IMG/VR virus record: IMGVR_UViG_3300014658_000002
Coordinates: 1-55,236 of that record
Strand: one strand, 5' to 3'
Length of the DNA stretch: 55,236 nucleotides
Origin: a virus
Lineage: Duplodnaviria > Caudoviricetes
In this document: piece by piece, positions 16,578-33,531 of the stretch
Numbering within the stretch: the first letter of the stretch is position 1
Layout: every line of letters starts with the position of its first letter
The notes under the pieces: generated by a model
The model's input: only the letters and a program-made list of their open reading frames with translations
Told to the model about the DNA's origin: nothing
The model's database searches: none
Program-made: the position numbers and the translations under genes

Positions 16578-16606
16578 ACGTTACGCCGCATCCGGTTTCA
16601 TGTCAA
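16578..16606 (-). promoter_or_regulatory. Sigma70-like promoter for the head operon
   Basis: TTGACA-N17-TAACGT on the minus strand. Confidence 0.65.
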
Positions 16607-16892: not shown

Positions 16893-16909
16893 TCTTGTCT
16901 CCTTGTACG

Positions 16910-19209: not shown

Positions 19210-19232
19210 CGACTCTCCAGAGACGCATGGGT

Positions 19233-19267
19233 TATAATGGAGTTGTCGGATGTTCGTCGCATCCGGC
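19233..19267 (+). promoter_or_regulatory. -10 box and leader hairpin of the endonuclease gene
   Basis: TATAAT at 19233-19238; hairpin GTCGGATG-TTCGTCG-CATCCGGC at 19245-19267. Confidence 0.5.
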
Positions 19268-19296
19268 CAAGACCCTACACGGAGGAAAGTCCGCGC

Positions 19297-19920
19297 ATGA
19301 CAACCCCATCAAATCCAAATTCTACACCTGATACTCTCAAAGAACAGAAAAGATTAGCTGAAAATGAGCGGATGCGTCTGTGGAGACTTGCCCATAAGAA
19401 TGATGACAACTACCGTTTGCGCCGGAACGAACGTGAGAAACTGCGCCGCCGAAAATTAGTAAAAGAGAGCGAGGAATTCCGCCTACTCGAAAGTGAGCGC
19501 AGTACTGCTTATAGGGTTAAGCACCCCGAAAAGAAAAAGCAAACCTGCCAGCGGTATAGAGACACCCACAAGGAACAAATCAAAAAATACGGTAAAGAGT
19601 ATCAAGCAAAATATCACCAAATTAATAGAAAACGGATACGCGACAGAGACCTTCAAAGAATCTATGGAATAACGTTGGAACAGTGGGATAAGCAATTCGA
19701 GTCTCAGGGGAACAGGTGCGCGATATGCGGCACAGACAAACCGGGGAAACGGAATAATTGGTCCACTGACCACAATCACGCCGATGGGGAGGTAAGAGGG
19801 ATTCTGTGCCATACCTGCAATATGATCCTGGGACTATCCGAAGACAGCATTGACCGTCTCGAAAAGGCCATCGCTTATTTGCAGAATCCCCCGTATCGCT
19901 CTATCCGAGAACCGATCTAA
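19297..19920 (+). CDS. Endonuclease VII-family (HNH-like) homing-type endonuclease, antisense to the packaging operon
   Basis: YGITLEQW...QGNRCAIC...DHNH...VRGILCHTCN.ILG...LEKAIAYL; basic N-terminus; GGAGG RBS before ATG 19297. Confidence 0.9.
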   Translation: MTTPSNPNSTPDTLKEQKRLAENERMRLWRLAHKNDDNYRLRRNEREKLRRRKLVKESEEFRLLESERSTAYRVKHPEKKKQTCQRYRDTHKEQIKKYGKEYQAKYHQINRKRIRDRDLQRIYGITLEQWDKQFESQGNRCAICGTDKPGKRNNWSTDHNHADGEVRGILCHTCNMILGLSEDSIDRLEKAIAYLQNPPYRSIREPI

Positions 19921-20248
19921 CCACTGTGCCGAACATCTCGTCCTTGAGCCGCTGATTTTCTGGCAACTCATTGTAAGGCACGAAGCAAGGATGCTCTTTG
20001 GTTTCAGGATTCTTGACGGGGCCATACTTCCACCCTGTTGCCGCCTTCTCTGCCAGCCATCCTTCATGTGATTGTTCTGGCGATGTTGAGGGGTTGTCGA
20101 GGATCATCTGAACGCCTTTGATAGCGCTCGATTTTTGCCACTCAGGAGCGTCTTCCCATTTTGGTTGAGACGTATCCCCCATAGCCAAGCAGAGAATCCT
20201 GTTGGCCTCATGTACTGCGCGGGCAGCATTTTGCACTCGTTCGCTCAT
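19901..20248 (-). CDS. RyR-domain protein
   Basis: HEGWLAEKAATGWKYGPVKNPETKEHPCFVPYNELPENQRLKD is the RyR repeat signature. Confidence 0.85.
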   Translation of the reverse strand: MSERVQNAARAVHEANRILCLAMGDTSQPKWEDAPEWQKSSAIKGVQMILDNPSTSPEQSHEGWLAEKAATGWKYGPVKNPETKEHPCFVPYNELPENQRLKDEMFGTVVRSVLG

Positions 20249-20709
20249 TACAGTTTTCCTTTCAGTCCATCTTTCACGATCCGGGTATCGTCGCCGCCCT
20301 GCTCGTACATCTCAGCCGCCAGCTTCGGCACTGCCCGGATACGCTGACTCAGGATGCGTTCGTAGAGCTTGTCTTGGGCATCCAGCATCCGAATATTCAC
20401 GTCCCGGTTGAATGGGTCCAGATGGGCGTTTCTGGCGATTACAGAATCCCGTACCGACTTGCGGAAGTCCCGCTCCTTTTCCAGCTTCTTGACCGCCGCC
20501 CGTTCCTCGTCATCGATGTGCTGTTGACGATACTGGTCCATGAAGCGGTCTAGATCGCAAGCGTGGAGGCAGATGATTGTTTCGTAGCGGATTCCTTCGG
20601 GAACATTGAGTGGAGGAGCGCCCTCGATTCCAAAACTGAGGATTCTGGAGGTTCCAATTTCCCGGTAAACCACGGTTCTTTCGGTGCCGCACAATTGTAC
20701 GTTGCCCAT
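20248..20709 (-). CDS. Hypothetical protein, probably leaderless
   Basis: ATG 20709 lies 7 nt downstream of a -10 box; coupled to the RyR gene. Confidence 0.65.
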   Translation of the reverse strand: MGNVQLCGTERTVVYREIGTSRILSFGIEGAPPLNVPEGIRYETIICLHACDLDRFMDQYRQQHIDDEERAAVKKLEKERDFRKSVRDSVIARNAHLDPFNRDVNIRMLDAQDKLYERILSQRIRAVPKLAAEMYEQGGDDTRIVKDGLKGKL

Positions 20710-20716
20710 GAGACAC

Positions 20717-20745
20717 AATTTACACCGCTTGGACGCTAAGAGCAA
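20717..20745 (-). promoter_or_regulatory. Sigma70-like promoter
   Basis: TTGCTC-N17-TAAATT; a 14-bp palindrome copy lies just upstream (20762-20775). Confidence 0.5.
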
Positions 20746-20775
20746 TTGAGAATTTCTGGCAGTGCAAGATTGCAC

Positions 20776-20865
20776 CAAAACAAAAATGCCTCAACCGGGA
20801 GGAAGAGGCATTTTTGACCATCGACGAAAGGAACCACGTCTCAAGCTGCCAAGCCATGAGCGCAC
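20776..20865 (-). ncRNA. Putative small RNA 1 (~90 nt): 5' hairpin, CU-rich linker, terminator
   Basis: Own promoter upstream; 12-bp terminator stem 20781-20816 with T-tail; same architecture as sRNA 2. Confidence 0.6.
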
Positions 20866-20869
20866 TTGT

Positions 20870-20899
20870 AGTATACAAAACTTTGTGATAGGGTTGCAA
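20870..20899 (-). promoter_or_regulatory. Promoter of sRNA 1
   Basis: TTGCAA-N18-TATACT-ACAAGTGCG; same elements at the same spacing at 31720-31749. Confidence 0.7.
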
Positions 20900-20928
20900 T
20901 TGCCAAGTCACATGAGAGCAAAAATCAC

Positions 20929-21275
20929 GACAATTCGATTTTCGTTAAGGTTTGAGCCTTCATGCGCCTTGGCGTCCTGCACGAAAGGCAGGCGGGGCGG
21001 GAAGAGTGGTGCGCTCAGGGGAGCCTCGATAGCAGTCTGGACCAATCGCCTAAATCCTTAGGGATAAGCTGAGTGCGGCGGGTTCAGTCTGTTGGATGCC
21101 CGCTGTGGTGGTTAAGGCGTCAAACCAATCCCCGGCAAACACCCGCCCGCAGTGGAGACACTGCCCCTCGCCTGGCTCCGGTCACGCATGGGAAAAGGTG
21201 AACGGCGATAGCCCAAGCCTTGTGGCTCACCTGTACAACCGGGTTAACCACACCCTTCCCCCCACCTTCACCAGT
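20929..21275 (+). ncRNA. Putative structured non-coding region A
   Basis: No convincing ORF; GNRA-capped hairpins (GCAGTG-GAGA-CACTGC; CCTGC-AC-GAAA-G-GCAGG); first 44 nt are 35/44 identical to 31780-31823. Confidence 0.45.
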
Positions 21276-21301
21276 ACCGCATAGGATTAAGAACAAAGCA
21301 T

Positions 21302-23467
21302 TTAGTAGCTTGGAACAATCATTCCCTGAGTGCACCACGCATCGCCTAAAGCTTCTTTCACCTTCTTCGTTAATGGCCAACGAGACTGTATTCTAGCTGC
21401 GGAATTTTCTAGTTCGTGAAAAGTGGTCCAGCCCATGGCCGATGCAAAGATATTGTCGTCGTGTTGTCCTTGCATGTGGATCATCTCGGTTTTGCCTTCT
21501 CCTCCGATGTACTTTCGCACGAAGGTAGAAAGCTGCCGAATGACAATAGGATCATTCAGTACCAGCCAGCCGGTATTCACCGCATCCACCCAGCGGTCGA
21601 GAAGGTAAGGTCTGGTATAGGCTCTGGTCCACCATCCTTCCTGATGGCCTGAATCCTGCAAAACGTTTCCTTTCTTGTCGATGCGGATCATAATGTGATG
21701 ATCTAGAAAGCCCATGATCTTCAATTGGCTCTGACATTCATCTCCCGGTTTCCGCGTCTGTTCGATGATGAACTTCACAACCAAAGGATTCGCAGAGGTG
21801 ATGTTCCCGCTTCCGTCCGTTCCGTAGAGAACTGCTACTGCCGCCGCAATACGGCTCATCTGGGGTGAATTCACCCGGAGCGATGTGAGTGAGGCCACCT
21901 GAATATCGGGTCCAGTCCCGTGGCCGTGCTTATGAACCGAAAGAGTGGCCCTGTCCTCATTGGGCTTATTCAAACCTCCAGCCGTATCAATCGCAATGGC
22001 GTATTCCGCTCCGGGTTGAGGCTCCTCGAAAATGAGCAGTTTGTCGAAACACGCTTCATCGGTCGAATCGTCAAATGGCCGCAAAGGAACCAGATTCCAT
22101 CGGTACTCGTTGTCGTCCAGCCCCTTCCATTCGAGAATAATGTCTGGCTCGTTGGGGTTGACTGCCTCGCGGTTGGGCTCATAGGGAACGTTGTCGCTTC
22201 CCATCAGGATCGTTCTTCCGGTGACCGCATAGGCTGCATAGCTCTTTTCCCGCGCCTCGGTCACAAGGGTAATCGCCTCTTGCGTGAAAACTGGATCGTC
22301 TTTGGATTGGAAAGCATCGTTCGGCGTCACGGCATTGGCGGCAAGAAACTCGCGCTCCGCATGTTTTGCCACCGCCTCCTCATAACCGCACTGCCAGAAC
22401 CACTGAAACTCTTTCGGCATCTCCCAGCGCTGGCCCAGGACTTTCCAAAGATAATCCGTGGAACGAACAAACAACTCGCCACGGCGCCTCATCTTCCGCG
22501 TCGTGTCCGTGACGTGCTGTTCCCAAGGTTCAGGAAGGGGATGCTGGCGTAACCACGCCTCGGGCGGATAAAGGTCAGTCGCACAGGCCGGGGGAATGAA
22601 AAAGGCTTTGAACCTTCCCTTTCCGGAGGAGTAGAGTTCCCAGCTTTCCTTCTGCCAAGTCGTCGCCATCGACCCGGTACCCTCAAGAACCATGAACAAA
22701 GACGGTAACTGGTGGCAGGCAGGAAATAGACCTTCATCAAGGGTGTGTTTGGGGTTCGTATAGTCGCCAAGCTCGCTGATATGGAGGCAGGATGGAGAGT
22801 CGCCCTGTCCAATGCCGACTTCCTGCGCACCGGCCTGCACGGAGAGTCGAGAGCCATTCGTCCACTTCGGCTCGTTGATCTTGGTGGAGATTTGCGGGAC
22901 GCGCAGCCAGAACGGAAGCTTATCCTGGCAGGTGTCTATCATGTTTTTCAGTTTCTTCGATTGCTCAACCTGCACGGACGCCACAATTGCATAGGTGTTG
23001 GCGACGTAGAGAATGCGTTGGACGAAGAACAATGCTGTGACGGTGGACACACCTAATTGTCGGGCCTTGAGGATGAAAAGCTGGATAGCAATCTGGAGAT
23101 CGTCGCACTCGGCAAGAAAGGCGAGAAAGATTCTCTGCGCAAGACGGAAGTCGAAATGAACGATTTGCGTGTTGGCTGCGCGGATGTAGGCGTAACGGGT
23201 AACAAAATATTCTGCCGAGGCAAAGCAAAGGAATCGTTCGTTGGCTACCCAGCGCTTGATTTTCTTGACAGTTGCCGGGGATGGAGATTTGCCGTCTTTC
23301 CAGAAGAAGTAGGACCGTGCGCCAGTTTTCGACTTGGACACGTCGGCGTACTTGTTGATTTCCTCCACCATGAAGTCGCACTCGGCAACCGTATGGAAGC
23401 GCGGATCCCAGCCGTTTTTGCGGGCGAATCCGTCTATGGTTTCCTGGATAATCCGTTCGCTATACAT
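21302..23467 (-). CDS. terL: Terminase large subunit
   Basis: Walker A LKARQLGVST, Walker B LHISE, VLEGT coupling motif, nuclease IAIDTAGG and HDD motifs. Confidence 0.92.
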   Translation of the reverse strand: MYSERIIQETIDGFARKNGWDPRFHTVAECDFMVEEINKYADVSKSKTGARSYFFWKDGKSPSPATVKKIKRWVANERFLCFASAEYFVTRYAYIRAANTQIVHFDFRLAQRIFLAFLAECDDLQIAIQLFILKARQLGVSTVTALFFVQRILYVANTYAIVASVQVEQSKKLKNMIDTCQDKLPFWLRVPQISTKINEPKWTNGSRLSVQAGAQEVGIGQGDSPSCLHISELGDYTNPKHTLDEGLFPACHQLPSLFMVLEGTGSMATTWQKESWELYSSGKGRFKAFFIPPACATDLYPPEAWLRQHPLPEPWEQHVTDTTRKMRRRGELFVRSTDYLWKVLGQRWEMPKEFQWFWQCGYEEAVAKHAEREFLAANAVTPNDAFQSKDDPVFTQEAITLVTEAREKSYAAYAVTGRTILMGSDNVPYEPNREAVNPNEPDIILEWKGLDDNEYRWNLVPLRPFDDSTDEACFDKLLIFEEPQPGAEYAIAIDTAGGLNKPNEDRATLSVHKHGHGTGPDIQVASLTSLRVNSPQMSRIAAAVAVLYGTDGSGNITSANPLVVKFIIEQTRKPGDECQSQLKIMGFLDHHIMIRIDKKGNVLQDSGHQEGWWTRAYTRPYLLDRWVDAVNTGWLVLNDPIVIRQLSTFVRKYIGGEGKTEMIHMQGQHDDNIFASAMGWTTFHELENSAARIQSRWPLTKKVKEALGDAWCTQGMIVPSY

Positions 23468-24277
23468 CTAGTCTTTCTTGCCTTCGAGAAGCTTATGTTT
23501 GTCAGCGCTGAACTCTTGTATCTGCTCACCTAGCGCGGGGAAAGCGTCATCCCAGTCGTCATCGGCGTCACTGTCTGAATCGCGTTCCTCTGCTGGCCGG
23601 CCAAAGCCCAGATTGATCTCTATGCCTCCACCCTTCTTTGTGGGCAAGAACCCTACCGCCTCGTGCATGATGCGCTGTGCTGCCACATCCCCTCGATAGC
23701 GAACCAATTTTCCATCATCGTCTCGCAAGGGGACCCCGCCAACCATTATGGGCTCTCCAGCCTTCGCAGCCTCTACGGTTGCCTCTACGACCTCGGGATG
23801 AGCCAGAGCGGCCTTTAGCCTGCTCTCTACGCCCTTCATCTGGATTGCTGACGACATGATCGCCCCCAGAATCTCCATGGGGTTCACTCGGGCATGGACG
23901 CACATCGCCTCAAACGAAAGTTTCTTCAGGTCTGAGGCTTTGACCTGGCGAATGGAATTCATAAACGCCAAAGCGCACGGTTGATTGGACACTGCCGCGA
24001 AGCCAATGATTTCCTTGCGAGGCAGACTTTTCCCTGACCCGAAGCATCGCGTGAGGATTTCCGAGGGCTCGTGCGGCATCAAAGCTACTGCGGCGGGGTC
24101 GATGTCCAGGCGCTTCATCACGGCAAGCGGGGATTGAGAATAGCCGTTACGCCTGATTGATACGCTTGGAGAACCGTGCGAGCGCGTCTTCTTCGGACTC
24201 GAAGGATCTGTACTCTTCGGGGCTTTGGGGCGTCCGACGATCTCCAACCCGGCTGATGGTGGCTTCTGTTGTTTCAT
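23468..24277 (-). CDS. Putative terminase small subunit
   Basis: Directly upstream of terL; position only. Confidence 0.4.
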   Translation of the reverse strand: MKQQKPPSAGLEIVGRPKAPKSTDPSSPKKTRSHGSPSVSIRRNGYSQSPLAVMKRLDIDPAAVALMPHEPSEILTRCFGSGKSLPRKEIIGFAAVSNQPCALAFMNSIRQVKASDLKKLSFEAMCVHARVNPMEILGAIMSSAIQMKGVESRLKAALAHPEVVEATVEAAKAGEPIMVGGVPLRDDDGKLVRYRGDVAAQRIMHEAVGFLPTKKGGGIEINLGFGRPAEERDSDSDADDDWDDAFPALGEQIQEFSADKHKLLEGKKD

Positions 24278-24367
24278 CGATTTGAGGATACTCCCGGTCT
24301 GCCCATCGTTCAGCTACTTTCACTGCACGGTCGAGGATGGAGATGATTCGGTCAAGCTGTTTCGAGG

Positions 24368-24727
24368 TCATACTTCGGCCTCAGCTTGCAACGCCGGGTC
24401 CATCGGCTCATCATCTTCCCACTTGAATTGATTGAGGGGGAAGTGAGCGTGGCAGTTCACGCACATCGTTCCCGAATAGAAGTGGGGGTCGCGTGCGTAG
24501 GTTTCAGACAGCGCCAGCCCCATCGTCGTTACCGATCCGCACGTCAGGTGCCTGTAAGAGCGTCGAACAGGTTTTACGAATCCCTTGGCTCGTTCCTGAG
24601 GGCAGAGAACCACATAATCCTTCTGCATTCCTGTGGCTGGATCAATCTCGCGATGTTCGGGAGTTTCAGGGTTTCCGCTCAACATGCATCGCTTGGAGCG
24701 GTCAACTTCAGGGACTTCTGGCATCAC
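24368..24727 (-). CDS. Phage Zn-binding hypothetical protein
   Basis: HLTC...CVNC metal ligands; GFVKPVRRSYRH...ETYARDP segments. Confidence 0.7.
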   Translation of the reverse strand: MMPEVPEVDRSKRCMLSGNPETPEHREIDPATGMQKDYVVLCPQERAKGFVKPVRRSYRHLTCGSVTTMGLALSETYARDPHFYSGTMCVNCHAHFPLNQFKWEDDEPMDPALQAEAEV

Positions 24728-25236
24728 GCCTCCTTAACTCGGGTGAGAGTTAGAACCTTGTCATCGTCAGAGAGCGCCATCGCCAGTGTTCCCTTCTGAG
24801 CGAGCCGGAGCATATCCGACACTGCGATAGTCAGCAACCCACCGGCATCGTCGATCAGTTTGGCGACAGCAGCATTTACAAAAATCCTGCACTCTTCTTC
24901 GGACCACAACCGACGTGAATGGTTCACGAAGTTGGTTTTCAGGTCTCCGCGCTCTACGGCAGCATCCGCAGCTCTAGACATGAGCAGGTTTGCTAGATTT
25001 CTAGCCTGCTCGACAGAGAAGACGATATGTCCGACACCGTTCTCGTCGGGCTCCAAGTCGGGGTGATTCACAACGACTTTACCTTTTCCGTTCGTCCCTA
25101 TTTCTAGAGTATTCATGGCAATTTCGGTCATACATCCCTCCGTTTCCCCGATGATCTTCTTTCTCAACTCTGTTATTTTCTGCTCATAATCTTCCATTGA
25201 ACCAGGAAGATAAGTTGGTTTTTGCTTTCCTGTCAC
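24724..25236 (-). CDS. Hypothetical protein
   Basis: ORF overlapping neighbours at start/stop. Confidence 0.6.
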   Translation of the reverse strand: MTGKQKPTYLPGSMEDYEQKITELRKKIIGETEGCMTEIAMNTLEIGTNGKGKVVVNHPDLEPDENGVGHIVFSVEQARNLANLLMSRAADAAVERGDLKTNFVNHSRRLWSEEECRIFVNAAVAKLIDDAGGLLTIAVSDMLRLAQKGTLAMALSDDDKVLTLTRVKEA

Positions 25237-25724
25237 ACATCCCTCCGTTTCCCTGACCCGCGCAGAGACTTCGAGAAAGAAGACTTCTCCGGTTCGGGCG
25301 GCTTCAGTTCTGTTGGCTTGGGGATCGGCTGAGACGTTTCGCGGCGGAAGCGGTTGGGAGGAACCTCGTCAATCGTTCCTTTAGCCCAAACAGTTCCGCC
25401 GGGAGCTATCTGATGCTTTCCGATACCTCCGCTTGTCACCCTTCCGAAGTTGTCAAGATTGTAGGTGACCCACCAATCAGCACGAACACTTTCATCTTCT
25501 CGCCACCACGCCAAGTTCCACATCGCCTTGAACTTGGCGTAGGCAGTGTGCGCAAGCAGGGAGCACGTCTTGCCCAAACCTGCCTCGATCTGTTCTCGCA
25601 ACGGTTCTACCACATCGGCCGGCAAGTCCTGCGTCATGCGGACTGCAATTCCATGCTTGATTTCAGTTCCCGTCAATGGCTGAGGAATGGATACGGTATT
25701 TGCGCTCATCATTTCCCCTTGCAT
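25233..25724 (-). CDS. Hypothetical protein (start probably 25712/25709)
   Basis: AGGGG RBS, coupled to neighbours. Confidence 0.6.
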   Translation of the reverse strand: MQGEMMSANTVSIPQPLTGTEIKHGIAVRMTQDLPADVVEPLREQIEAGLGKTCSLLAHTAYAKFKAMWNLAWWREDESVRADWWVTYNLDNFGRVTSGGIGKHQIAPGGTVWAKGTIDEVPPNRFRRETSQPIPKPTELKPPEPEKSSFSKSLRGSGKRRDV

Positions 25725-25921
25725 GCTACGGACGCATTGGCCGTCATCACAGCCTCACGCACTTTGCGAATCGCCGCTGTCTTATCGGCGGATTCTGGAC
25801 ATAGTTCGTTGATTGCCGTTGCGAATGCCCTCGCTGAGTTGCGCAACTTCTCGTAAGTCACGAGGTCATCGCTAGATGGCGCGTGATAGATGAACCAATT
25901 CTCAATCTGCTCGATTGTCAT
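25709..25921 (-). CDS. Acb2/Tad1-like helical-hairpin protein (candidate signalling-nucleotide sponge)
   Basis: AAGGA RBS; IENWFIYHAP...YEKLRNSARAFATAINELCPESADKTAAIRKVREAVMTANASVA resembles the family pattern as recalled. Confidence 0.65.
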   Translation of the reverse strand: MTIEQIENWFIYHAPSSDDLVTYEKLRNSARAFATAINELCPESADKTAAIRKVREAVMTANASVACKGK

Positions 25922-26138
25922 GATATTCCTTTTCTGCCTCTCTGTACCTCTGTTGCAATGCCGCCATTTTCTCACGGGAACCTAACTTTGGCGGATGTTT
26001 CCCTTTTTCAATGTCGCGGATGGTCTTGCGAGTGATGCCGAGCGCCTGTGCTTCCTGTTCCTGGGTCAAACCGTGTTCCTTGCGCCAGCGGAGCCACTCT
26101 CCGGCATAGTCGCGGTTTGGGTCGCCGTGCTGCCTCAA
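25902..26138 (-). CDS. XRE-family HTH regulator
   Basis: LRWRKEHGLTQEQEAQALGITRKTIRDIEKGKHPP. Confidence 0.85.
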   Translation of the reverse strand: MRQHGDPNRDYAGEWLRWRKEHGLTQEQEAQALGITRKTIRDIEKGKHPPKLGSREKMAALQQRYREAEKEYHDNRAD

Positions 26139-26270
26139 CTTAGCGCCCCCAGCATTCCAAATCGATACGAAATATTTTTCCGCATCGTCTGCACACGTGA
26201 ATATTTGCTCCGTTCTCCGGAGTCATATTCAGTGCGTCTATGTGGCCGAATACCCAACAGAGAATGGCCC

Positions 26271-26507
26271 TCATGACGGCCTCACAATCATCGGCTGCTG
26301 TGGCTGGTCCATGCCGACAAACTGTGCGCTCAGAGTGTATCCACAGTGACCGCACCAGATGATCGACACCAGATGCCCGACTGGAGTCTTGACCACATTG
26401 CACATGAACTCCAGCGGCTCATGCTTGCATTTTGGGCAGTTTGGCTGATGAAGTCGGGCAGCATCTTTCTGGGCAAACTGAATGATTTTTTCGTCGCGGT
26501 CGTTCAT
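26271..26507 (-). CDS. Small zinc-ribbon protein
   Basis: GAGGG RBS; CPKC...CGHC. Confidence 0.65.
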   Translation of the reverse strand: MNDRDEKIIQFAQKDAARLHQPNCPKCKHEPLEFMCNVVKTPVGHLVSIIWCGHCGYTLSAQFVGMDQPQQPMIVRPS

Positions 26508-26626
26508 TTTCCCTCGTTTGGTGCGATATTGCACTGAATTCCGCGTCTTGGGTTTACCGGATGCGCGGCCCACGGAATGCCCAGCCATATTGAACTGGTA
26601 CCCATTTCCCCCGTGCGGGGGAACTT

Positions 26627-27064
26627 TCAGGCCGTCTGGCTCACGAGAATCGTATACGTATGAGTCACGCCGGGTGTGATGGGAACGGTGACCGAACCGT
26701 AGACAGTCGATCCGTTAGGCGCCGTGGTGCCGGCGGTGACGGTGACCGATGTGGCGGTATCGGTTGCGGGAACGGTCACGACGACCGAGGTTGAGTCCGC
26801 GGAAGGGGCCAAGGTTGCGTTGGTGTCGTCCGAAGTCCATGCGAAGGTTGAGCCAGAAGGAAGCGAGATCGGATTCCCGTTGTCTTCCAGTTGGGCGGTG
26901 AATGTTCCGGTAGTGCCTACTGAGATTGCCATTTTGCTCTCCAGTGTGACGTGAATTGAGAAAACATGGTGCTTGAGATGTTCAAGGATGCGGCGAAGAA
27001 GATAACGGTTCTCCCGCTCCAAATACAGAATCTCACGAAGATCGTGAAATGGGTTATCCATCAC
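26627..27064 (-). CDS. Ig-like domain protein (alternative start 26932)
   Basis: Beta-sandwich pattern FTAQLED...FAWTSDD...VTVTA, similar to Big_2-type domains. Confidence 0.65.
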   Translation of the reverse strand: MMDNPFHDLREILYLERENRYLLRRILEHLKHHVFSIHVTLESKMAISVGTTGTFTAQLEDNGNPISLPSGSTFAWTSDDTNATLAPSADSTSVVVTVPATDTATSVTVTAGTTAPNGSTVYGSVTVPITPGVTHTYTILVSQTA

Positions 27065-27516
27065 TGGCCATCCTGCCGCGATTCCTTTCCTCTACGGTAG
27101 GCTTCGATGATGAACTTGAATATTTTATCTCTCATCTCCACCTGATCTCCCGTAGAGGAAGGGGCTCCTGGTTCGCTCATTCCATCAATCTCGCACACAA
27201 GTTTGAAAACATCTCCATATGGTTCAAGCAAGTTCTTGATCCCGTTCAAGTCTTCTTGTTCTGGCGCGAGGAACATGCGACGTTGCCACTCTACAGCAAA
27301 TGGGACTAAACGAGAATCGCATTCTGGGAGTTTGTCGTCAACAAAATCAAAGCACTTTATCTCTTGCTCTTCGGTGGGCGCCATTGGATTCTCGCTCAGC
27401 CAGCGTATTCCAGCCATCAAACCTTCAGCGGCCAATTGTGAATCTTCCCCATTAGAACCTACGCTATATGCCGCCTTAAGCATTCCCTCCGGTACCAAAA
27501 TCTTTTTCTCGCTCAC
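27061..27516 (-). CDS. Hypothetical protein
   Basis: Coupled ORF. Confidence 0.6.
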   Translation of the reverse strand: MSEKKILVPEGMLKAAYSVGSNGEDSQLAAEGLMAGIRWLSENPMAPTEEQEIKCFDFVDDKLPECDSRLVPFAVEWQRRMFLAPEQEDLNGIKNLLEPYGDVFKLVCEIDGMSEPGAPSSTGDQVEMRDKIFKFIIEAYRRGKESRQDGQ

Positions 27517-27917
27517 ACCTTCCTCCAGTTCCCGTGCTTCACCTTTGCGCTATGCTCAGGCTTTCCGCAAGCCATCGTCTCTCCACTCTCGCCATCATAT
27601 TCAGTGTAGGAGCACATCACGGTTTCCTCTTCAACAAATTCATCAAAGGCGACGGCTGCATGAACCGGTCTATCCACAATCGCCCGAACTCCCTCTGAAG
27701 CGATTCGTAGCTTTGCCGCAATTTCAGGCGATTGAACTCTCGAAAAATCCCCGGCCTGAGCCTGCGCATTCAGAATATCTCCAGCAGGAACATACAATTT
27801 TCGGTTTCTGTTCTTCTTACACGTTAAGCACTCCCGCTTTCCATCAGGCCTGTGATAAAGATTCTCCTCCACCATCCGATGCCCACGAGAACACTTTTCA
27901 CTCTTCAACGCGCCCAT
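27513..27917 (-). CDS. Protein with N-terminal Cys/His finger
   Basis: CSRGH...ENLY.RPDGKRECLTC, a finger usually appended to phage HNH nucleases; first gene after an AT-rich promoter-like stretch (27920-27955). Confidence 0.65.
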   Translation of the reverse strand: MGALKSEKCSRGHRMVEENLYHRPDGKRECLTCKKNRNRKLYVPAGDILNAQAQAGDFSRVQSPEIAAKLRIASEGVRAIVDRPVHAAVAFDEFVEEETVMCSYTEYDGESGETMACGKPEHSAKVKHGNWRKV

Positions 27918-28286
27918 AAGTGAATAATACTCTTATTTGCCCAATAATCAAGTGGAAAATTCGCTTTTCGGGTGAATAATTCTCTTTCTGACCAAAATCC
28001 ATGAATCCATGTTTGGGCTCAGGAACGTTCCATGCCATCACGCCGCCCTGTCCTGGACAACCTCTCGCCACATCCTTCATGCGCCACATGGACAAATTCA
28101 CGACAACCCACGGCAGGCAAAGCACTTAGGCGCGCCAGTGAGGGCTGCCGCAGGCATGGAACGCGGCGAGGCATCGGGGAACGGAGCAAGAAGCAAAAAA
28201 TGGAAGATGAGAGGGAAAACGTTTCTGATTACACCCCATTGCTCCCTATTGCGGAAAGATGCGGTAATATTGGCGCAGGAGGATCA

Positions 28287-28466
28287 ATGAACCAGCTTAT
28301 GGAGGAGTGGGTAACCCCGAAAGACGCTGCCGCATACTTGGGGATCAGTGTGAAGACTGTGAGGGGTTGGTGTGTGTCTGGAAGGCTTATATCACGCAAG
28401 CTTGGATACAGGACGATACGGATTGCTACGGTGAGTATCGAGAAGATGTTAGAGAGAAAAGACTGA
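28287..28466 (+). CDS. Excisionase/MerR-like HTH_17 DNA-binding protein
   Basis: AGGAGG RBS; WVTPKDAAAYLGISVKTVRGWCVSGRL...TIRI. Confidence 0.85.
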   Translation: MNQLMEEWVTPKDAAAYLGISVKTVRGWCVSGRLISRKLGYRTIRIATVSIEKMLERKD

Positions 28467-28478
28467 ATTACCCACCGC

Positions 28479-28505
28479 TTAGCACTCAATGAGCATGATT
28501 GCTAA
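28479..28505. promoter_or_regulatory. CIRCE-like element (HrcA operator)
   Basis: TTAGCACTC-N9-GATTGCTAA versus consensus TTAGCACTC-N9-GAGTGCTAA (1 mismatch). Confidence 0.65.
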
Positions 28506-28558
28506 TAATTGCAATTCGTTGCAATTTATTGCTTGATATTGCAATACATTGTGATAAT
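28498..28558 (+). repeat. Six direct repeats at exact 10-bp period overlapping the early promoter
   Basis: ATTGCTA, ATTGCAA, GTTGCAA, ATTGCTT, ATTGCAA, ATTGTGA at 28498, 28508, 28518, 28528, 28538, 28548; extended -10 TGtGATAAT at 28550-28558. Confidence 0.8.
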
Positions 28559-28779
28559 CTGGTCACGTTGATGAGTTGAGGGCACGCCCCAGGTTGCCAT
28601 CCATGAGATGGGTACGCAAGGCCAATACGGATCAATGATCAGCACATATCGGATGCGTTTTCGCTGTAGTTCACCGCGAGAACACATCAGAGGCAATCAG
28701 CCATGACAATCATCTACAACTGCAAAGCCTGCAAGCGTGGACACCGCGTAGAGATACATCAGATGAGGAGGAAAAGAAC

Positions 28780-28974
28780 ATGACCATGAATCAAGTGAGC
28801 AAGTTGGCTTTGAATATCGCCCGCAAATACAAAGACGCTGAGTCGGTTCGCCGTGGGGACATTATCCGCGATGTGGTGCGCACCAACAAGCTGAACATGG
28901 AAGAGTCGCTCATTCTTGCCGACTGCATTGTCAAGGGCATGTACGCGGCTGGAAAGACAGTGGTGATCGCATGA
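28780..28974 (+). CDS. Early hypothetical protein
   Basis: GAGGAGG RBS. Confidence 0.7.
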   Translation: MTMNQVSKLALNIARKYKDAESVRRGDIIRDVVRTNKLNMEESLILADCIVKGMYAAGKTVVIA

Positions 28975-29345
28975 ACGGACTGGAAACGATCAATTGGATT
29001 GATACCGACTATGAAGACCCGCCAGTGGGTGAAACTGTTCTTGTGTTCGGTGGCCTTGCGTTCATCAACGCACAAGGCGTTTGGTATACAGAAATGGAGC
29101 ATCCTCCTCGCCCTATTATGTGGCGCGTTACTCACTGGGCAGTTCGTCCAGACCCGCCGCAATACCTGATAGATCAGACAGAAGAACAGCGCAAGTTGCG
29201 AGATATGGTCAAGTCTATCCATCAACCATTTAACGGGTTCACGCGCCCTACTGGGTGCCGTTGCCATGCCGATGGAACCATGAACATTGAGTGCCCTGTT
29301 CACCGCAATGGAATTGTTGCATCAATTGGAATTATGGGGTTATAG
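28971..29345 (+). CDS. DUF551-like early protein
   Basis: WID...PPVGETVLV...VTHW pattern. Confidence 0.6.
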   Translation: MNGLETINWIDTDYEDPPVGETVLVFGGLAFINAQGVWYTEMEHPPRPIMWRVTHWAVRPDPPQYLIDQTEEQRKLRDMVKSIHQPFNGFTRPTGCRCHADGTMNIECPVHRNGIVASIGIMGL

Positions 29346-29354
29346 GAGAACGCA

Positions 29355-29663
29355 ATGACTATTTGTCCTGATTGTGGTACGCGACAGCATTACGTATGTA
29401 ACCCAAAGCGGAAAAATCCAGACTTTAGCTATCGCATTGACGGCATGTTCGCGCTCATCCTGCCCGAGTCGCCCGCTGGCGAGAAAGCAATGCCTGAGTT
29501 GATGGCAATGACGGATGGGACCGCGAAAGTGTTCGCCACGCAGCTACAGGCGCTCAAGGCCGATCTACACCGCGCTGGATACACCATTCGCAAGCGGTCG
29601 ACACGTAAGACGTGCAGCAAGGCTGATATTGAGCATCTTTTTGGGCAACTTCAGGCCAATTAA
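29355..29663 (+). CDS. Early hypothetical protein
   Basis: AGGAG RBS; CPDC at the N-terminus. Confidence 0.65.
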   Translation: MTICPDCGTRQHYVCNPKRKNPDFSYRIDGMFALILPESPAGEKAMPELMAMTDGTAKVFATQLQALKADLHRAGYTIRKRSTRKTCSKADIEHLFGQLQAN

Positions 29664-29699
29664 CCGGTTTAGTGCAATATCGCACATTTTGGAGGATTT

Positions 29700-29825
29700 A
29701 TGTCCATTTCAACCGCGAAAGCGAAGCTCTACAAGACAGCTTGGATCATCGCCTCACACCGCGCAGCTTGCGTCTGGGCAGTCCTACGCTCCAAACAGAT
29801 GAACGGAAAGCAGGTAGCAGCATGA
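29700..29825 (+). CDS. 41-aa peptide not in ORF track (MSISTAKAKLYKTAWIIASH...)
   Basis: GGAGG RBS right after a palindrome copy; ATGA overlap with next gene. Confidence 0.55.
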   Translation: MSISTAKAKLYKTAWIIASHRAACVWAVLRSKQMNGKQVAA

Positions 29826-30175
29826 CCAACGAATACATCGACATGATGAAGGCGCAAGGCTGGAAGGTGTACTATCGCCCCGCTAAAGGCACGTTCAAGG
29901 GCGAATACTGCTACGTGACCGATGGAACCAACATTGCCTACGCGCAATGGAGCGATGGCCGGCCATCCGTCAGCACCGTCCACATGCCAAACAGACAGAC
30001 CGGCACCGGCTTTCAATTCGCCGACCGCATCACCGCTGAAACGGTCAGCAAGGCTATGTCCACCCTGGCTCCGTCATGGGCGCGTCAGGCGGATGTGTCC
30101 AGCGTCCACAAGTACAAGAATTGGGAAGCCTTCCACAAAGCCAACAGCTTCAACTCGGAACTGGTCGAAGCTTAG
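29822..30175 (+). CDS. Early hypothetical protein
   Basis: Start MTNEY coupled to the upstream peptide. Confidence 0.7.
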   Translation: MTNEYIDMMKAQGWKVYYRPAKGTFKGEYCYVTDGTNIAYAQWSDGRPSVSTVHMPNRQTGTGFQFADRITAETVSKAMSTLAPSWARQADVSSVHKYKNWEAFHKANSFNSELVEA

Positions 30176-30248
30176 TGCAATATCGCACCTGTCTAACCAG
30201 GAAACCTCGGTAGCAGCTTAACCGCAGTACCCACCCAGAAAGGGAATC

Positions 30249-30725
30249 ATGGAACTCACCACCACATTAAATCTGCTACACAAAGCCCATGCCTGTGCGC
30301 CACGATACAAAGTTCTGCTCACAGCGCTGGGAACTAACTATCCACCAGACAGACCCATCAATCTGCTTACTATTCTCAACCTCAATGGCTTGGATGATGC
30401 GCTGTGGGCTCTATGCGCAACTGCCGAGAATTGCGATAAAGTAGCGCGCCTAATGGCCGCAGATTTTGCCGGCCAAGTTTTGCCCATTTGGCAGCAATAC
30501 TCAGACGATAAACGCCCCGCATCGGCAATCAAAGCCGCACGAGACTTTGCCAATGGGCTTATCACGGCTGCTGCGAGGGATGCTGCGGGGGCTGCTGCGG
30601 GGGCTGCTGCGAGGGATGCTGCGGGGGCTGCTGCGAGGGCTGCTGCGGGGGCTGCTGCGGGGGGTGCTGCGAGGGACAAACAGAAAGAAATCTTTATAGC
30701 ATATCTCCAGCCCGAGGTAATCTAA
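30249..30725 (+). CDS. Phage protein with Ala-rich tetrapeptide repeats (Imm5-like helical region)
   Basis: AGAAAGGGAA RBS; NGLDDALWAL...AADFA.QVLPIW...DKRP..AI.AARDFA.G followed by AARD/AAGA repeats. Confidence 0.75.
   Translation: MELTTTLNLLHKAHACAPRYKVLLTALGTNYPPDRPINLLTILNLNGLDDALWALCATAENCDKVARLMAADFAGQVLPIWQQYSDDKRPASAIKAARDFANGLITAAARDAAGAAAGAAARDAAGAAARAAAGAAAGGAARDKQKEIFIAYLQPEVI
30566..30673 (+). repeat. Nine 12-bp tandem repeats GG(C/A/G)TGCTGCG(A/G)G
   Basis: Read directly; encodes the Ala-rich repeats. Confidence 0.9.
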
Positions 30726-30925
30726 TGGCACAAAAACAACAGCTTGATGCCGACCACGAGTACTTTACCGTAAAGCAAACGGCAGCGTACTTGCAAGTGT
30801 CCGAACGCACCATCCATACTTACATCAAAACCGGCCGGCTGGAATACTCGCAGCCTGTACGTCGGGGTGCAATCCGCATCAGCAAGACGGCAATCGACAA
30901 TCTCATGGAAGGCAAGAAGCCGTGA
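30725..30925 (+). CDS. Second excisionase-like HTH_17 protein
   Basis: YFTVKQTAAYLQVSERTIHTYIKTGRL...AIRISKTAI. Confidence 0.85.
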   Translation: MAQKQQLDADHEYFTVKQTAAYLQVSERTIHTYIKTGRLEYSQPVRRGAIRISKTAIDNLMEGKKP

Positions 30926-30964
30926 TTTGGTGCAATCTTGCACCGAAGAAAAGGGGAAAACCAG

Positions 30965-31297
30965 ATGCCCACGTTGTATAGTCGTATTCCCATCGAAATC
31001 ATCGACCGCCTGGCGCAGGAAGCGCAAGACAAGGCCGATGCAGAGCGCGCCACCTATGGCCGACTGGATTGCGTGGCCGACCACCTGGCGCATGAGGCCA
31101 GCGAGTACCGCCGGGCCGTGGATATGCAAATCGCAGATGACCTGGACATGCAGATGGGCGGAATGGCTTTGGTGGATGAAACCGCACCGGCTACTCCGTC
31201 TGACCCGCCACGTTGCTTCCGCGGACTAGCACTTACGGCTCTTTTCTCGCTGCCGGTATGTGCAATCGTTGCATGGCTCATTTGGAGGGCGCTATGA
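30965..31297 (+). CDS. Hypothetical protein with C-terminal membrane anchor
   Basis: AGGGG RBS; hydrophobic C-terminus. Confidence 0.65.
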   Translation: MPTLYSRIPIEIIDRLAQEAQDKADAERATYGRLDCVADHLAHEASEYRRAVDMQIADDLDMQMGGMALVDETAPATPSDPPRCFRGLALTALFSLPVCAIVAWLIWRAL

Positions 31298-31497
31298 CCC
31301 GCCAGCAAGCGGCGTGGCACCACCGCCCGTACGATGTGGATGCGGAAGACTCCTTTTATGACCATGAGAGCGTGAAAGAGTACCCGTTTACCAACATTCT
31401 CGGCAATACTCAAAACGTGAGTCACCGTCGGATAGATAACACAACCATTTTTTGTGCCATCACGCTCATTCTTTGGGTGTTGGCAATGATCTTCTGA
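31294..31497 (+). CDS. Small protein with C-terminal membrane anchor
   Basis: ATGA overlap (MTRQQAAW...); hydrophobic C-terminus. Confidence 0.5.
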   Translation: MTRQQAAWHHRPYDVDAEDSFYDHESVKEYPFTNILGNTQNVSHRRIDNTTIFCAITLILWVLAMIF

Positions 31498-31590
31498 TCT
31501 CTCCACAACCCACCCAAGCTGACGGCATGGAAAACCATGCTGAGCTATCGGGTGCTCGTCCACTAATCCACGCAGTCGATGTTCCCTCCC

Positions 31591-31715
31591 AAAAACCAAG
31601 AGGCCCAACCGTAAGGAAGGGCCTCTAAGCCGGAAGAGAAAGGGAAACGGTGCGGGGCTCCATCAAGTGTTGTTCAGGCAAAAGATGGACGAGGTTTGGG
31701 ACCAGAACCCCGCAC
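31591..31715 (-). ncRNA. Putative small RNA 2 (~120 nt): 5' hairpin, anti-RBS linker, terminator
   Basis: 5' stem GTGCGGGG/CCCCGCAC; linker CGTTTCCCTTTCT; terminator stem 31599-31626 with T-rich tail. Confidence 0.65.
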
Positions 31716-31719
31716 TTGA

Positions 31720-31749
31720 AGTATAACCGTTCTTCATGCTAGGATGCAA
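31720..31749 (-). promoter_or_regulatory. Promoter of sRNA 2
   Basis: TTGCAT-N18-TATACT-TCAAGTGCG, homologous to 20870-20899. Confidence 0.7.
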
Positions 31750-31779
31750 TTGTTCAGGTAAAAGATTGCGACAATCTCT

Positions 31780-32170
31780 GACAATTCGGTTCTCGTCAAG
31801 GTTCCCGCTTTCGTGCGCCTGGGCCACGTCTCTGCATGGCATTGCATCCCGGAGAGGGCACAACGTGTACAGGATGAGAGCGGCTGTCCAGTGTCTAATA
31901 AACAATCACCAGAGTTTGAGCCGAGCAAATGCAGCCCCGGTGTCGATGATGGCCTTGTCGCCGCGCCGCCAGGGTCACGGGGATCGGCAAATCAGCAGGT
32001 AAGGGTTCCCCTACTGAGAGGCGGGGCTTTCCGGGTTCAGGTGACCACTTCCTTCCCGGTCCGTTATGAGACGTACCAAGAACCCATAGAACTGCGCTGG
32101 TTGGCTCCGATGATTAACTCCACCAGATGCAGGGACTACAGGTCTCTACGGGGAAAGTGGGAAGTGTATC
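31780..32170 (+). ncRNA. Putative non-coding region B / long leader of gene 32184
   Basis: No convincing ORF; starts with the 44-nt block shared with 20929-20972. Confidence 0.4.
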
Positions 32171-32183
32171 TGAAAGGGAAACG

Positions 32184-32441
32184 ATGAGCGACTTACTTGA
32201 CATGGATTACATCAACAGTCTTCCTCAGCCGATCTACGGGCGCATGTTGGGTGATAAAAACAATTGGTGGCCCGTGATTGATTTCGAGGTCGGAACCGGC
32301 TTGATGCATATCGACGTGTGCGGTAAATCACAGCTAACACATGTGCGCGAGTTTGCCTCGTTTATGGATATCTGCGAACGGAAATATCAATCAGATGCTT
32401 TATATTCGGACGCCACACAAGAGGATCGTGTTTGTATCTAA
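32184..32441 (+). CDS. Hypothetical protein
   Basis: GAAAGGGAAACG RBS before MSDLLDMDYINSLPQP. Confidence 0.7.
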   Translation: MSDLLDMDYINSLPQPIYGRMLGDKNNWWPVIDFEVGTGLMHIDVCGKSQLTHVREFASFMDICERKYQSDALYSDATQEDRVCI

Positions 32442-32465
32442 GAAGCAAAGACAGAGAGGAGAAAA

Positions 32466-32939
32466 ATGAAGATTTACGTTGCAAGTAGCTGGCGGAATGA
32501 TTACCAACCGGGGGCGGTGAGACGGTTGCGCGAGTTGGGGCATGAGGTATATGACTTTCGCGGCTGTGATACCGGATGGGGAAGCGCAACAGATAGAGTT
32601 GGAATCCCCGGAGGATTCTCTTGGTCGAACGTAGATCCCGATTGGAAGAGTTGGTCCAATGACGTTCCGCGCTATCTTCGCGGACTTGAACATCCACGTG
32701 CCATTGAAGGCTACAACCGAGACATGAACGCTCTCAAAAGGGCTGACGCCTGTATCCTCGTGAATCCCTGCGGTCAATCGGCACACGCCGAGCTTGGGTG
32801 GGCTGCTGGAGCCGGTAAGCTCACCGCTGCTTGGTGTCCAGAGATTCGAGAACCCGATTTAATGCTCAAGATGGCAGGACACATAACCGACCGCTGGGAA
32901 TCCATCGAGCTATGGTTAAGGGTTCCACTCGATTTGTAA
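32466..32939 (+). CDS. Nucleoside 2-deoxyribosyltransferase-like protein
   Basis: KIYVASS...D..AL..ADACILV.PCG.SAH.ELGWA.G.GK matches the NDT-superfamily pattern. Confidence 0.75.
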   Translation: MKIYVASSWRNDYQPGAVRRLRELGHEVYDFRGCDTGWGSATDRVGIPGGFSWSNVDPDWKSWSNDVPRYLRGLEHPRAIEGYNRDMNALKRADACILVNPCGQSAHAELGWAAGAGKLTAAWCPEIREPDLMLKMAGHITDRWESIELWLRVPLDL

Positions 32940-33021
32940 ATCGGTGCAATCTTTCACTAAATAACCACACATGCAGGGAATGTCAACGTTGGCACTAAGG
33001 TGTATGAAGAGAAAGGGTGAA

Positions 33022-33318
33022 ATGCCTGACGTAATAATCATCGACCGATGGAAGATCGTTTACGACTGCGTGAAGGAGCGTGGCTCATACAGCACTGGAA
33101 AAGGGTTGTACAACGACAATCACGTTAAGAAGCTGATCGAGGAAGTTAGCCGACTAGAAGCGGGTTTGATAGCTGCGGCAATGTCGCTCGAAACAATCCA
33201 CGAGCAGGCGGGGCGGGATGAATTCCTGATCCATATGCTTCAGGTGCGCGGCTATGCCAACAGCCGGGCGACAGTAGCTCGTGCGGCTTTGACAGACACC
33301 AGAAAGGAAGAACGATGA
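33022..33318 (+). CDS. Hypothetical protein
   Basis: AAAGGG RBS before MPDVIII. Confidence 0.55.
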   Translation: MPDVIIIDRWKIVYDCVKERGSYSTGKGLYNDNHVKKLIEEVSRLEAGLIAAAMSLETIHEQAGRDEFLIHMLQVRGYANSRATVARAALTDTRKEER

Positions 33319-33531
33319 AGCCTGAGTTGATTTTCCGGAGGGCAAATGAGGACAGTTTCAAGTATTGCTTCGGAATTAACCTCGCCTTTGGCAAGGCTGG
33401 TCTAATCTTCGAGGTAATGTTTTTGTTTTGGGGTTTCCAAGTCAACTGGCTGAAAGCGAACTTCTATTGCGAGTAGGCTTCCGGTGTGTGTTGGAGGATG
33501 AAATAAAAAGTGGAATAATTTGTGCTCGATT

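Follow-up and report, generated by a model that had tools for sequence, protein, structure and literature searches.

Two divergent cassettes in an uncultivated phage genome

The single-contig virus record IMGVR_UViG_3300014658_000002 (Duplodnaviria; Caudoviricetes) was analysed over its full length of 55,236 bases (the window), which is a whole 55-kb phage genome. In it lie two copies, A and B, of a small cassette. Each copy has a predicted small RNA (sRNA) gene on the minus strand and, divergent from it, a predicted leader on the plus strand with a short open reading frame (ORF) that leads into a conserved block (Table 1). The sRNA is complementary to the 5′ end of its own leader, and we propose that it may gate translation of the leader ORF.

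The genes of the phage run on the minus strand from ~390 to 28,100, on the plus strand from ~28,780 to 33,480, and beyond that on the minus strand again. Locus A lies between the large terminase gene terL and the next minus-strand gene, which has its real start at ~20709. Locus B is part of the plus-strand island, flanked by 31213-31497 on one side and by the gene that begins at 32184 on the other. A covariance model of the block region found exactly these two copies in the window.

An earlier first-pass annotation, made from the letters alone, had described the two regions as homologous at a near-constant offset. This holds: the block belongs to repeat family D11 and is 80% identical between the copies over 45 nt, at a spacing of 10851. 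The pairwise alignment of A and B is weak outside the promoter and the block. Their similarity is far beyond chance, and the block, the promoter pair and the layout recur in 11 further variants on other contigs.

Table 1 Positions of the cassette features and neighbouring elements in the window.
Feature	Position	Strand	Description
Cassette copy A	20757-21300		~545 nt
Palindrome GTGCAAGATTGCAC	20762-20775		left edge of the copy A insertion; one of 8 strict copies; also in L001
Copy A small RNA (predicted, 85 nt)	20779-20863	minus	5′ stem-loop, unpaired C/U-rich linker, terminator hairpin with U run
Copy A plus-strand promoter (predicted)	20866-20894	plus	TTGTAG (20866-20871), N17, TAGGGT (20889-20894); predicted start ~20901
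Copy A sRNA promoter (predicted)	20870-20899	minus	-35 TTGCAA (20899-20894), 18-nt spacer, -10 TATACT (20875-20870)
Copy A 5′ hairpin (predicted)	20902-20973	plus	minimum free energy (MFE) -25.0 kcal/mol, z -3.78, 0/200 shuffles as stable
Copy A leader ORF	20912-21061	plus	ATG, 49 aa; block = codons 6-21
Copy A conserved block	20929-20973	plus	repeat family D11
Copy A right module	20974-21300	plus	GC-rich, without coding signal or significant fold; points towards the 3′ end of terL
Large terminase terL	21302-23467	minus	PHROG matches
Cassette copy B	about 31585-32183
Copy B small RNA (predicted, 120 nt)	31594-31713	minus	long 5′ stem-loop, C/U-rich linker, terminator
Copy B plus-strand promoter (predicted)	31716-31745	plus	TTGAAG (31716-31721), N18, TAGGAT (31740-31745); predicted start ~31752
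Copy B sRNA promoter (predicted)	31720-31749	minus	-35 TTGCAT (31749-31744), N18, -10 TATACT (31725-31720)
Copy B 5′ hairpin (predicted)	31752-31824	plus	z -2.26
Copy B leader ORF	31766-32002	plus	TTG start, 78 aa; relatives P0001 and P0003 end at the same place
Copy B conserved block	31780-31824	plus	repeat family D11
Copy B right module	31825-32183	plus	reaches the start of the next plus-strand gene (ATG 32184)

Relatives and variants of the cassette

Nineteen IMG/VR loci encode a related terminase. Only L001 (94% TerL identity) has locus A, and the covariance model of the block region gave no match in the other 18 of the 19. Scans with block patterns recovered 4 loci in IMG/VR, 19 in metagenome contigs and 2 in genome contigs. 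L045 and L046, found in genome contigs, are the window's own sequence, and L026 and L029 overlap each other. The 27 block copies fell into 13 distinct variants, namely A, B and 11 others, including variant C (L022-24, 26, 34 and 36). The upstream part was present in 12 of the 13 variants, and at least 400 nt downstream in ten.

Across all variants only the block could be aligned, with 85-98% identity, a conservation that is partly by construction since the search pattern fixed most block bases. The flanks separate subfamilies: A with L001/L044, L042 and L043; B with L027; C with L037; and L028 with L032. Two back-translated degenerate patterns, which have low power for synonymous variation, were run against IMG/VR; one had no matches and the other only the 4 known loci.

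A small RNA gene and two overlapping promoters

On the minus strand, the best sigma-70-type match stood at the homologous offset from the block in 10 of 12 variants. Its -35 is near TTGCAA and its -10 is TATNCT-like, often with a TG before it. Reading the sequence, we see this promoter in both copies as described in the first-pass annotation. A consensus promoter scan found TTGCAA-N18-TATACT at 20899-20870 in A, and the B copy, with its weaker -35, fell below the threshold.

To predict the sRNAs, the start was set 7 nt past the -10 and the end at the first hairpin followed by a U run. This rule gave sRNAs of 85-139 nt, composed of stem-loop, linker and terminator, in 11 of 12 variants; for L042 it gave no terminator. 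The 5′ stem-loop is closed by GCGGGG/CCCCGC in most variants. For A and B, the first-pass annotation had claimed a 5′ hairpin, a C/U-rich linker and a terminator, with different terminator stems and a conserved loop, and both predicted RNAs fold in this way, including the U run. In the predicted fold of the copy B sRNA, the anti-leader stretch is displayed in the apical loop of the 5′ stem-loop. In A, B, L001/L044, L028 and L033, the terminators share a UUCCU...CGG(A)UU-type apical loop on differing stems. The terminators of the remaining variants are unrelated to this type.

In 8 of 12 variants, the top-ranking plus-strand site was a putative promoter at the homologous offset. Its quality ranged from TTGACA-N17-TACGAT (10/12 matches) down to weak, and in copy A it was a weaker match than another site in an automated scan. 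The two promoters overlap back to back, with the plus-strand -35 covering the sRNA start and the plus-strand -10 abutting the sRNA -35, and the leader would begin ~40 nt ahead of the block. From this geometry, RNA polymerase would sit on only one of them at a time.

The conserved block as the start of a leader ORF

In all 12 variants the block frame has a start codon 24-30 nt upstream, ATG in nine and TTG in three, and is open through the block. In each of the other two frames, such a start with an open frame occurred in 1 of 12 variants. Most variants also have an AGG-type Shine-Dalgarno (SD) sequence 6-10 nt before the start, and in most the block, which is codons 6-21 of the ORF, translates as TIRFSSRFPLSCAWA. 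Length changes inside the block are two, both of 3 nt. Indels elsewhere in the ORF keep the frame as well (12 nt between C and L037; compensating 2+1 nt between B and L027), and indels after the ORF stop are of 1, 2 or 4 nt. Among the block columns not fixed by the search pattern, the most variable are third positions of four-fold codons. Beyond the block, the ORF runs for another 28-68 codons in complete variants.

Protein searches returned three other members only, all of the same short-ORF family (two near the query length, one longer), and no longer protein family with the block. A Pfam search of the ORFs gave no family match. The products of the conserved-frame ORFs are not hydrophobic, with a best 15-residue Kyte-Doolittle mean of 0.6-1.5 and no membrane helix. 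Searching all frames, we found no small hydrophobic ORF common to the variants.

The 5′ end of the leader as a hairpin

Between its predicted start and the block end, the leader folds into one long imperfect hairpin, with the same MFE topology in 12 of 12 variants. The z-scores are all negative (Table 1 for A and B; -2.72 to -0.22 for the others). In this fold, the SD is among the first 6-9 nt, which are paired with the block's 3′ end; the first codons are matched to its middle part, and its 5′ half is left as the apical loop. In copy A, the 5′ arm (5′ untranslated region (5′UTR), SD region and start codon) pairs with the 3′ half of the block.

Pairs 1-3, 5 and 6 of the outer stem are standard in 12 of 12 variants, and pair 4 changes on both sides, being A-U in copy A and G-C in L043; this pair table was built from MFE-defined ends and leans towards pairing. 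The frequent U-G pairs of the hairpin are C-A mismatches on the opposite strand, indicating that the hairpin belongs to the plus-strand RNA. We conclude that the block is both the start of a presumably translated leader ORF and a predicted SD-sequestering arm.

Each small RNA matches its own leader

Each cassette contains a direct repeat of 15-20 nt, with one copy in the sRNA gene and the other at the predicted 5′ end of the leader. A stretch of 15-25 nt of the sRNA is thus antisense to the leader 5′ end. The paired stretch begins at the predicted plus-strand start and spans the 5′UTR, the SD and the start codon. The sRNA genes do not overlap the leaders (from ~20901 in A and from ~31752 in B), and the complement is a separate copy of the direct repeat.

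Duplex energies were calculated for all combinations of sRNA and target. Cognate pairs had a mean of -28.8 kcal/mol versus -20.1 kcal/mol for non-cognate pairs (standard deviation (sd) 3.3), and the cognate was best in 11/12 rows and 11/12 columns. When the predicted sRNA ends were used, the means were -28.7 and -17.8 kcal/mol (sd 3.6). The cognate was then best in 10/11 rows and 10/11 columns, and 0/100,000 permutations reached the observed mean. An ungapped repeat score gave 9.83 for cognate and 6.61 for non-cognate pairs (non-cognate maximum 9), with the cognate strictly best in 8/12 rows. In copy B, positions 31752-31768 are identical at 16 of 17 bases, ungapped, to a plus-sense stretch inside the sRNA gene, and the cognate duplex (-29.3 kcal/mol) ranks first in its own row and column. 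Cross-pairing of the A and B sRNAs with each other's targets was not above background, and the two copies would have different specificities. These results support an RNA module of the antisense-switch type, as proposed in the first-pass annotation: each sRNA complements the start of its divergent transcript, and from cassette to cassette the two change together.

A second target for the B sRNA, a 12-nt plus-sense match at the ribosome-binding site (RBS) of the gene at 32184, was considered and rejected. Over 10 variants, the longest common substring of sRNA and downstream RBS averaged 8.3 for cognate and 8.06 for non-cognate pairs, with a non-cognate maximum of 12 too. The match is attributed to chance, because cognate pairs did no better than non-cognate ones.

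The two copies of the direct repeat, ~80 bp apart, flank the overlapping promoters, an arrangement that could also act at the DNA level. The repeats would then be operators or iterons for a phage protein, or the locus an RNA-primed replication origin, as the first-pass annotation had put forward. A palindrome family found genome-wide (see below) can be counted as a sign that the phage uses DNA operators. However, the cassette encodes no protein to co-vary with 12 different repeat sequences. The repeat copies lie inside a terminated transcript and at a divergent 5′ end, as RNA pairing requires, and the G-U pattern of the hairpin is strand-specific. Neither cassette contains tandem repeats (iterons), and copy A is absent from 18/19 related terL loci, hence no essential origin. 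Unlike a ColE1-like RNA-primed origin, there is no overlap of primer and antisense RNA, copy A is missing from most related terL loci, and the sequences following the block in different subfamilies are unrelated. Taken together, a DNA-level action is very improbable, and its origin form was not supported.

Sequence downstream of the block

The sequence after the block, here called the right module, is unrelated between subfamilies. For A and B, the first-pass annotation had described 300-350 nt of GC-rich, apparently non-coding, structured DNA on this side. The GC-rich part stood (0.61 at 20950-21249 and 0.57 at 31750-32049). The non-coding part did not, a short plus-strand ORF having been overlooked, and the structure was not borne out by fold z-scores in either copy. 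Folded as a single sequence, the copy A right module had z -0.40 (plus) and +0.59 (minus). Pairwise alignment folding (alifold) of B and L027 gave z -0.57 and -1.04, without a structure signal. For C and L037 it gave z -3.1 and -2.4, and 0/30 shuffles reached the observed value for the former. Strong duplexes between the block and downstream segments occurred in every variant, at inconsistent positions and with no control for comparison.

A GC-rich hairpin with a U run follows the ORF stop by 10-13 nt in C and L037. In B and L027 the hairpin after the stop has only a short stretch of U, and no convincing one was seen in A. Elsewhere in the right module there is no coding signal. Two further ORFs were rejected. 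The first, a frame-2 ORF on the plus strand (31813-32187, 124 aa in B), starts inside the block and overlaps the following gene at ATGA; only B and L027 keep it open, the other variants have 9-59 codons of it, and it lacks a codon signal. The second, at 21096-21284 (62 aa), loses its frame in L001 and has no family match.

The missing codon signal downstream would suit a pair of purely non-coding RNAs, in which a ~400-nt untranslated plus-strand RNA is functional, the block is an RNA element only (a hairpin arm, or a protein- or RNA-binding loop) and the sRNA controls its folding or stability. The pairing of the block with the 5′ end in 12/12 variants, with covariation, would fit this too, as would the C/L037 alifold signal, the invariant synonymous sites in the block, and the non-synonymous loop changes in P0001 and P0003. 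So would the right module of A, which is ~97% identical to that of L001 over 20975-21160, versus ~80% for the left module (sRNA, promoters and 5′UTR) and flanking genes. Against such a pair stand the in-frame start in 12/12 variants versus 1/12 in each other frame, the indels, which keep the frame within the ORF and not after it, and the ORF, which is open for at least 28 codons past the block in every complete variant. In addition, the right-module fold energy of A is ordinary on both strands, B/L027 has no structure signal, right modules are unrelated between subfamilies and there is no Rfam match up to E 10. We consider this explanation rather improbable.

The first-pass annotation had also allowed for the block being a coding fragment of a decayed gene, with a TIRFS... 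frame. The conserved reading frame is there. The decay is not, as the block lies at the start of what appears to be a live short ORF and forms the hairpin arm. A related explanation takes the whole cassette for a relic, in which a promoter region precedes the decayed remnant of a former gene's 5′ end and the sRNA-like hairpins are ordinary terminators. The absence of codon constraint past the block would follow from it, and it would suit A and C, which are directed at the 3′ end of a convergent gene. It is hardly credible, given that promoters, sRNA layout, complementarity, start codon and hairpin are kept across 12 variants otherwise diverged beyond alignment. Moreover, no longer protein family has the block, and all hits belong to the same short-ORF family.

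Comparison with known systems

Divergent type I toxin-antitoxin (TA) loci have a divergently encoded sRNA with 18-19 nt of complementarity and discriminate between duplicated loci (PMC3919570). A long 5′UTR limits translation there by itself (PMC5397157). The cassette is like zorO-orzO, shoB-ohsC and tisB-istR-1, with an sRNA divergent from a small ORF, ~15-20 nt of complementarity, locus discrimination and a 5′UTR that would hamper translation. By this architecture, the short ORF product could be a toxin and the sRNA its antitoxin, the two copies then being orthogonal paralogues with a role in phage stabilisation, abortive infection or exclusion. Cognate complementarity, a predicted 5′ hairpin and a start codon are all present in the cassettes, which are small, autonomous and mobile between genomic sites.

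A toxin is nevertheless unlikely. The ORF products are not hydrophobic and have no membrane helix, no hydrophobic ORF is shared, only the N-terminal ~21 residues are conserved with a neutral tail behind them, and there is no Pfam match. Most variants lie directly upstream of plus-strand genes, as a leader would. The cassette further differs from divergent type I TA loci in its fully overlapping, back-to-back promoters and in its pairing at the extreme 5′ end, including SD and start codon, instead of at an upstream standby or processing site. It is also phage-borne and usually a leader before other genes. Because the defining hydrophobic toxin is absent, we did not file the cassette as a member of type I TA.

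Leader control by antisense RNA is known from plasmids. In R1 (CopA/tap), in the IncB/IncI leader peptide systems and in pT181/pIP501 attenuation, an antisense RNA gates the translation or folding of a leader and thereby sets downstream expression, and the specificity diversifies among relatives. These antisense RNAs come from the opposite strand of their own target, with full overlap. The cassette resembles them in that a small antisense RNA would gate a leader ORF. It differs in its separate, non-overlapping, adjoining sRNA gene, and no replication gene follows. Compared with attenuation, a terminator-like hairpin after the ORF is present in one cassette subfamily only (C, L037). Systems of the hok/sok type are small autonomous cassettes in several copies, with an mRNA start occluded by structure and an antisense RNA on the start of a leader ORF. 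The cassettes described here are similar, with ~0.55-0.75 kb, several copies per genome, a structured start and an antisense RNA on the leader ORF. Unlike that type, they have no overlapping toxin ORF and no family match, and the sRNA is not cis-overlapping.

In phages, the immunity RNAs of P1/P7 (c4-ant), P4 (CI RNA) and P22 (sar) pair with an RBS region through a short complement that differs among relatives; they are processed from the target operon or overlap it. The cassette sRNA would likewise pair with the RBS region through a variant-specific short stretch, and by analogy a link to immunity or lysogeny may be considered. Unlike these RNAs, it is separately encoded. In lambdoid nut/put antitermination leaders, each early promoter of a phage is followed by the same RNA element that binds a protein or the polymerase. 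With respect to these, the block is common to A and B, yet the hairpins that follow differ completely within the one phage. No antiterminator gene was recognised among the window genes scanned.

The first-pass annotation had assigned the element to no known family, and this remained so after homologues had been collected. Against Rfam 15 at gathering thresholds the whole window gave 0 matches, and both regions searched up to E = 10 gave chance-level matches only. A megablast of 20000-33000 against phage GenBank had no match. In a limited search of the literature on antisense RNA, leader peptides and bacteriophages, nothing resembling the cassette was found.

An antisense-gated leader ORF as the most probable reading

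The comparison identifies the cassette as real, recurrent and autonomous, with two orthogonal copies in this phage, and the pairing logic and anatomy are well supported by it. We read it as an antisense-RNA-gated leader ORF cassette that fronts accessory genes and resembles a divergent type I TA locus without the hydrophobic toxin. We put the probability of this reading at roughly 0.55. The transcripts, the translation of the ORF, the downstream effect and the biological role are what we infer.

In this mechanism, the minus-strand promoter would make a terminated sRNA of ~85-140 nt. The plus-strand promoter would make the leader, the first ~25 nt of which (5′UTR, SD-like AGG and start codon) complement the cassette's own sRNA. 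The 5′ hairpin would hold translation of the leader ORF low. Where the block offers G-U wobbles, the sRNA would offer Watson-Crick A-U pairs and could so invade the 5′ arm. Its invasion would block initiation and probably trigger decay. Translation over at least 28 codons past the block may alter read-through into the following accessory genes, or the stability of the leader.

A number of observations weigh against this reading. In copy A the pairing is interrupted, and the best ungapped repeat is 7/7 only and located elsewhere. When long sRNA queries were slid along the whole genome in a duplex scan, the ten best windows did not include the cognate 5′UTRs. Only the antisense of the sRNA genes themselves stood out, and the scan was dominated by non-specific long duplexes; specificity therefore rests on the comparison of cognate and non-cognate pairs. 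The plus-strand promoter is a weak one in A, L041 and L043, and for C and L033 it is unclear. Neither A nor C is followed by a plus-strand gene; their leaders run up against the 3′ end of a convergent gene (terL in A). The post-stop terminator-like hairpin with U run is clear only in C and L037.

Further such points concern the peptide. Besides the constraint imposed by the search pattern, some four-fold sites outside it never vary, and the pattern-free protein relatives P0001 and P0003 have non-synonymous changes in mid-block, in the residues encoded by the loop. Constraint at the RNA level is probably a stronger reason for block conservation than the peptide. The peptide tail shows no purifying selection, with ratios of non-synonymous to synonymous changes (pN/pS) of 1.26 (B/L027), 0.65 (C/L037) and 0.70 (L042/L043). 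These are no lower than in the other frames, and the differences are even across codon positions. The kept frame together with the neutral tail suggests that the act of translating the region, rather than the product, may matter.

Four metatranscriptome runs hold parts of the phage, and their contigs cover 20918-21185 (X2, with a variant in X1) and 31859-32061 (X3). Such RNA-library contigs give no strand, ends or level and may include DNA, so this cover is a weak hint of expression at most. They leave other parts, including the sRNA genes, uncovered, which is uninformative since contigs lack starts, ends, strand and level.

If the antisense-gated leader is real, uncultivated wetland phages carry a modular RNA-only control device with a dozen non-cross-reacting specificities, two of them in this genome. 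The divergent design of sRNA and small ORF, known from chromosomal type I TA loci, would then extend to a toxin-free phage leader, and the variants would form a natural set of orthogonal sRNA/5′UTR pairs. For annotation, this would mean that "intergenic" stretches of 0.55-0.75 kb are genes (sRNA and leader ORF) and not spacers.

A bolder version, which we find doubtful, makes the cassettes a new class of phage "RNA locks", orthogonal and freely recombining. Each would combine a divergent sRNA, a strand-displaceable 5′ hairpin and a near-universal 15-residue arrest or sensing leader peptide. They could gate accessory (moron-like) genes or, in A, antisense transcription into the terminase. The sRNA specificity might serve as an RNA-only immunity or incompatibility code among co-infecting relatives, and the 45-nt block as a universal adapter for swapping regulatory heads and cargo tails.

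Mobility, mosaicism and gene context

Compared with the related loci, locus A is an insertion of ~545 nt (20757-21300), as in the others terL is followed by the next gene within tens to ~140 bases. Reading filled against empty sites, we found no target-site duplication or terminal inverted repeats. At the same site downstream of terL, unrelated inserts of ~400-600 nt occur in L017 (6172-6566) and L018 (2313-2932), and the site looks like an insertion hot spot.

For L037, L022, L033 and L042, the best partners of the left and right modules disagree. The nearest relatives on the left and right, respectively, are L027 and C for L037, C and L032 for L033, and L028 and L043 for L042. Modules with different nearest relatives on either side point to the block as a recombination joint, at which left and right modules would be shuffled between phages. 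If so, a short conserved joint swaps regulatory and cargo modules, a concrete case of exchange at module boundaries in phage mosaicism. That the window and L001 share so similar a right module could reflect strong constraint, or else a recent exchange at the block.

In B, L027, L028, L032, L033, L037 and L042, the leader reads into plus-strand genes with a good RBS, mostly of unknown function. L033 and B share flanking synteny further downstream. In the window, a nucleoside 2-deoxyribosyltransferase-like gene (32466-32939) lies two genes downstream of copy B.

Other features of the genome

An exact 123-nt direct repeat stands at both window ends (1-123 and 55114-55236), either as terminal redundancy or as a circular assembly overlap, which suggests that the genome is complete. 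A tRNA/tmRNA search of the window found none, and no integrase or repressor was identified among the window genes scanned. L045 and L046 are 100% identical to window positions 30597-38596 and 15484-23483. The contig that carries them sits in a metagenome-assembled genome labelled Candidatus Saccharibacteria, which may hint at the host or be an artefact of binning. In the structural block, 19901-20248 encodes a small RyR-domain protein.

The plus-strand ORF at 30249-30725 matches the Imm-5-like immunity protein family and contains a 12-nt tandem repeat of ~9 copies (30566-30675), which can equally be read in units of 36 nt. Where the minus- and plus-strand gene blocks diverge, the intergenic region has a 10-nt unit, ATTGCAATAC, repeated ~5.4 times (28498-28551); these are candidate regulatory or origin-type iterons. 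The palindrome GTGCAA-NN-TTGCAC occurs at least 8 times in the genome, mostly between genes and on both strands. The 14-mers start at 9219, 20762, 26521, 29672, 30175, 30930, 37741 and 53449, and looser copies lie near 3098, 32941, 34985, 41309 and 53074. It is a candidate operator for a phage DNA-binding protein.

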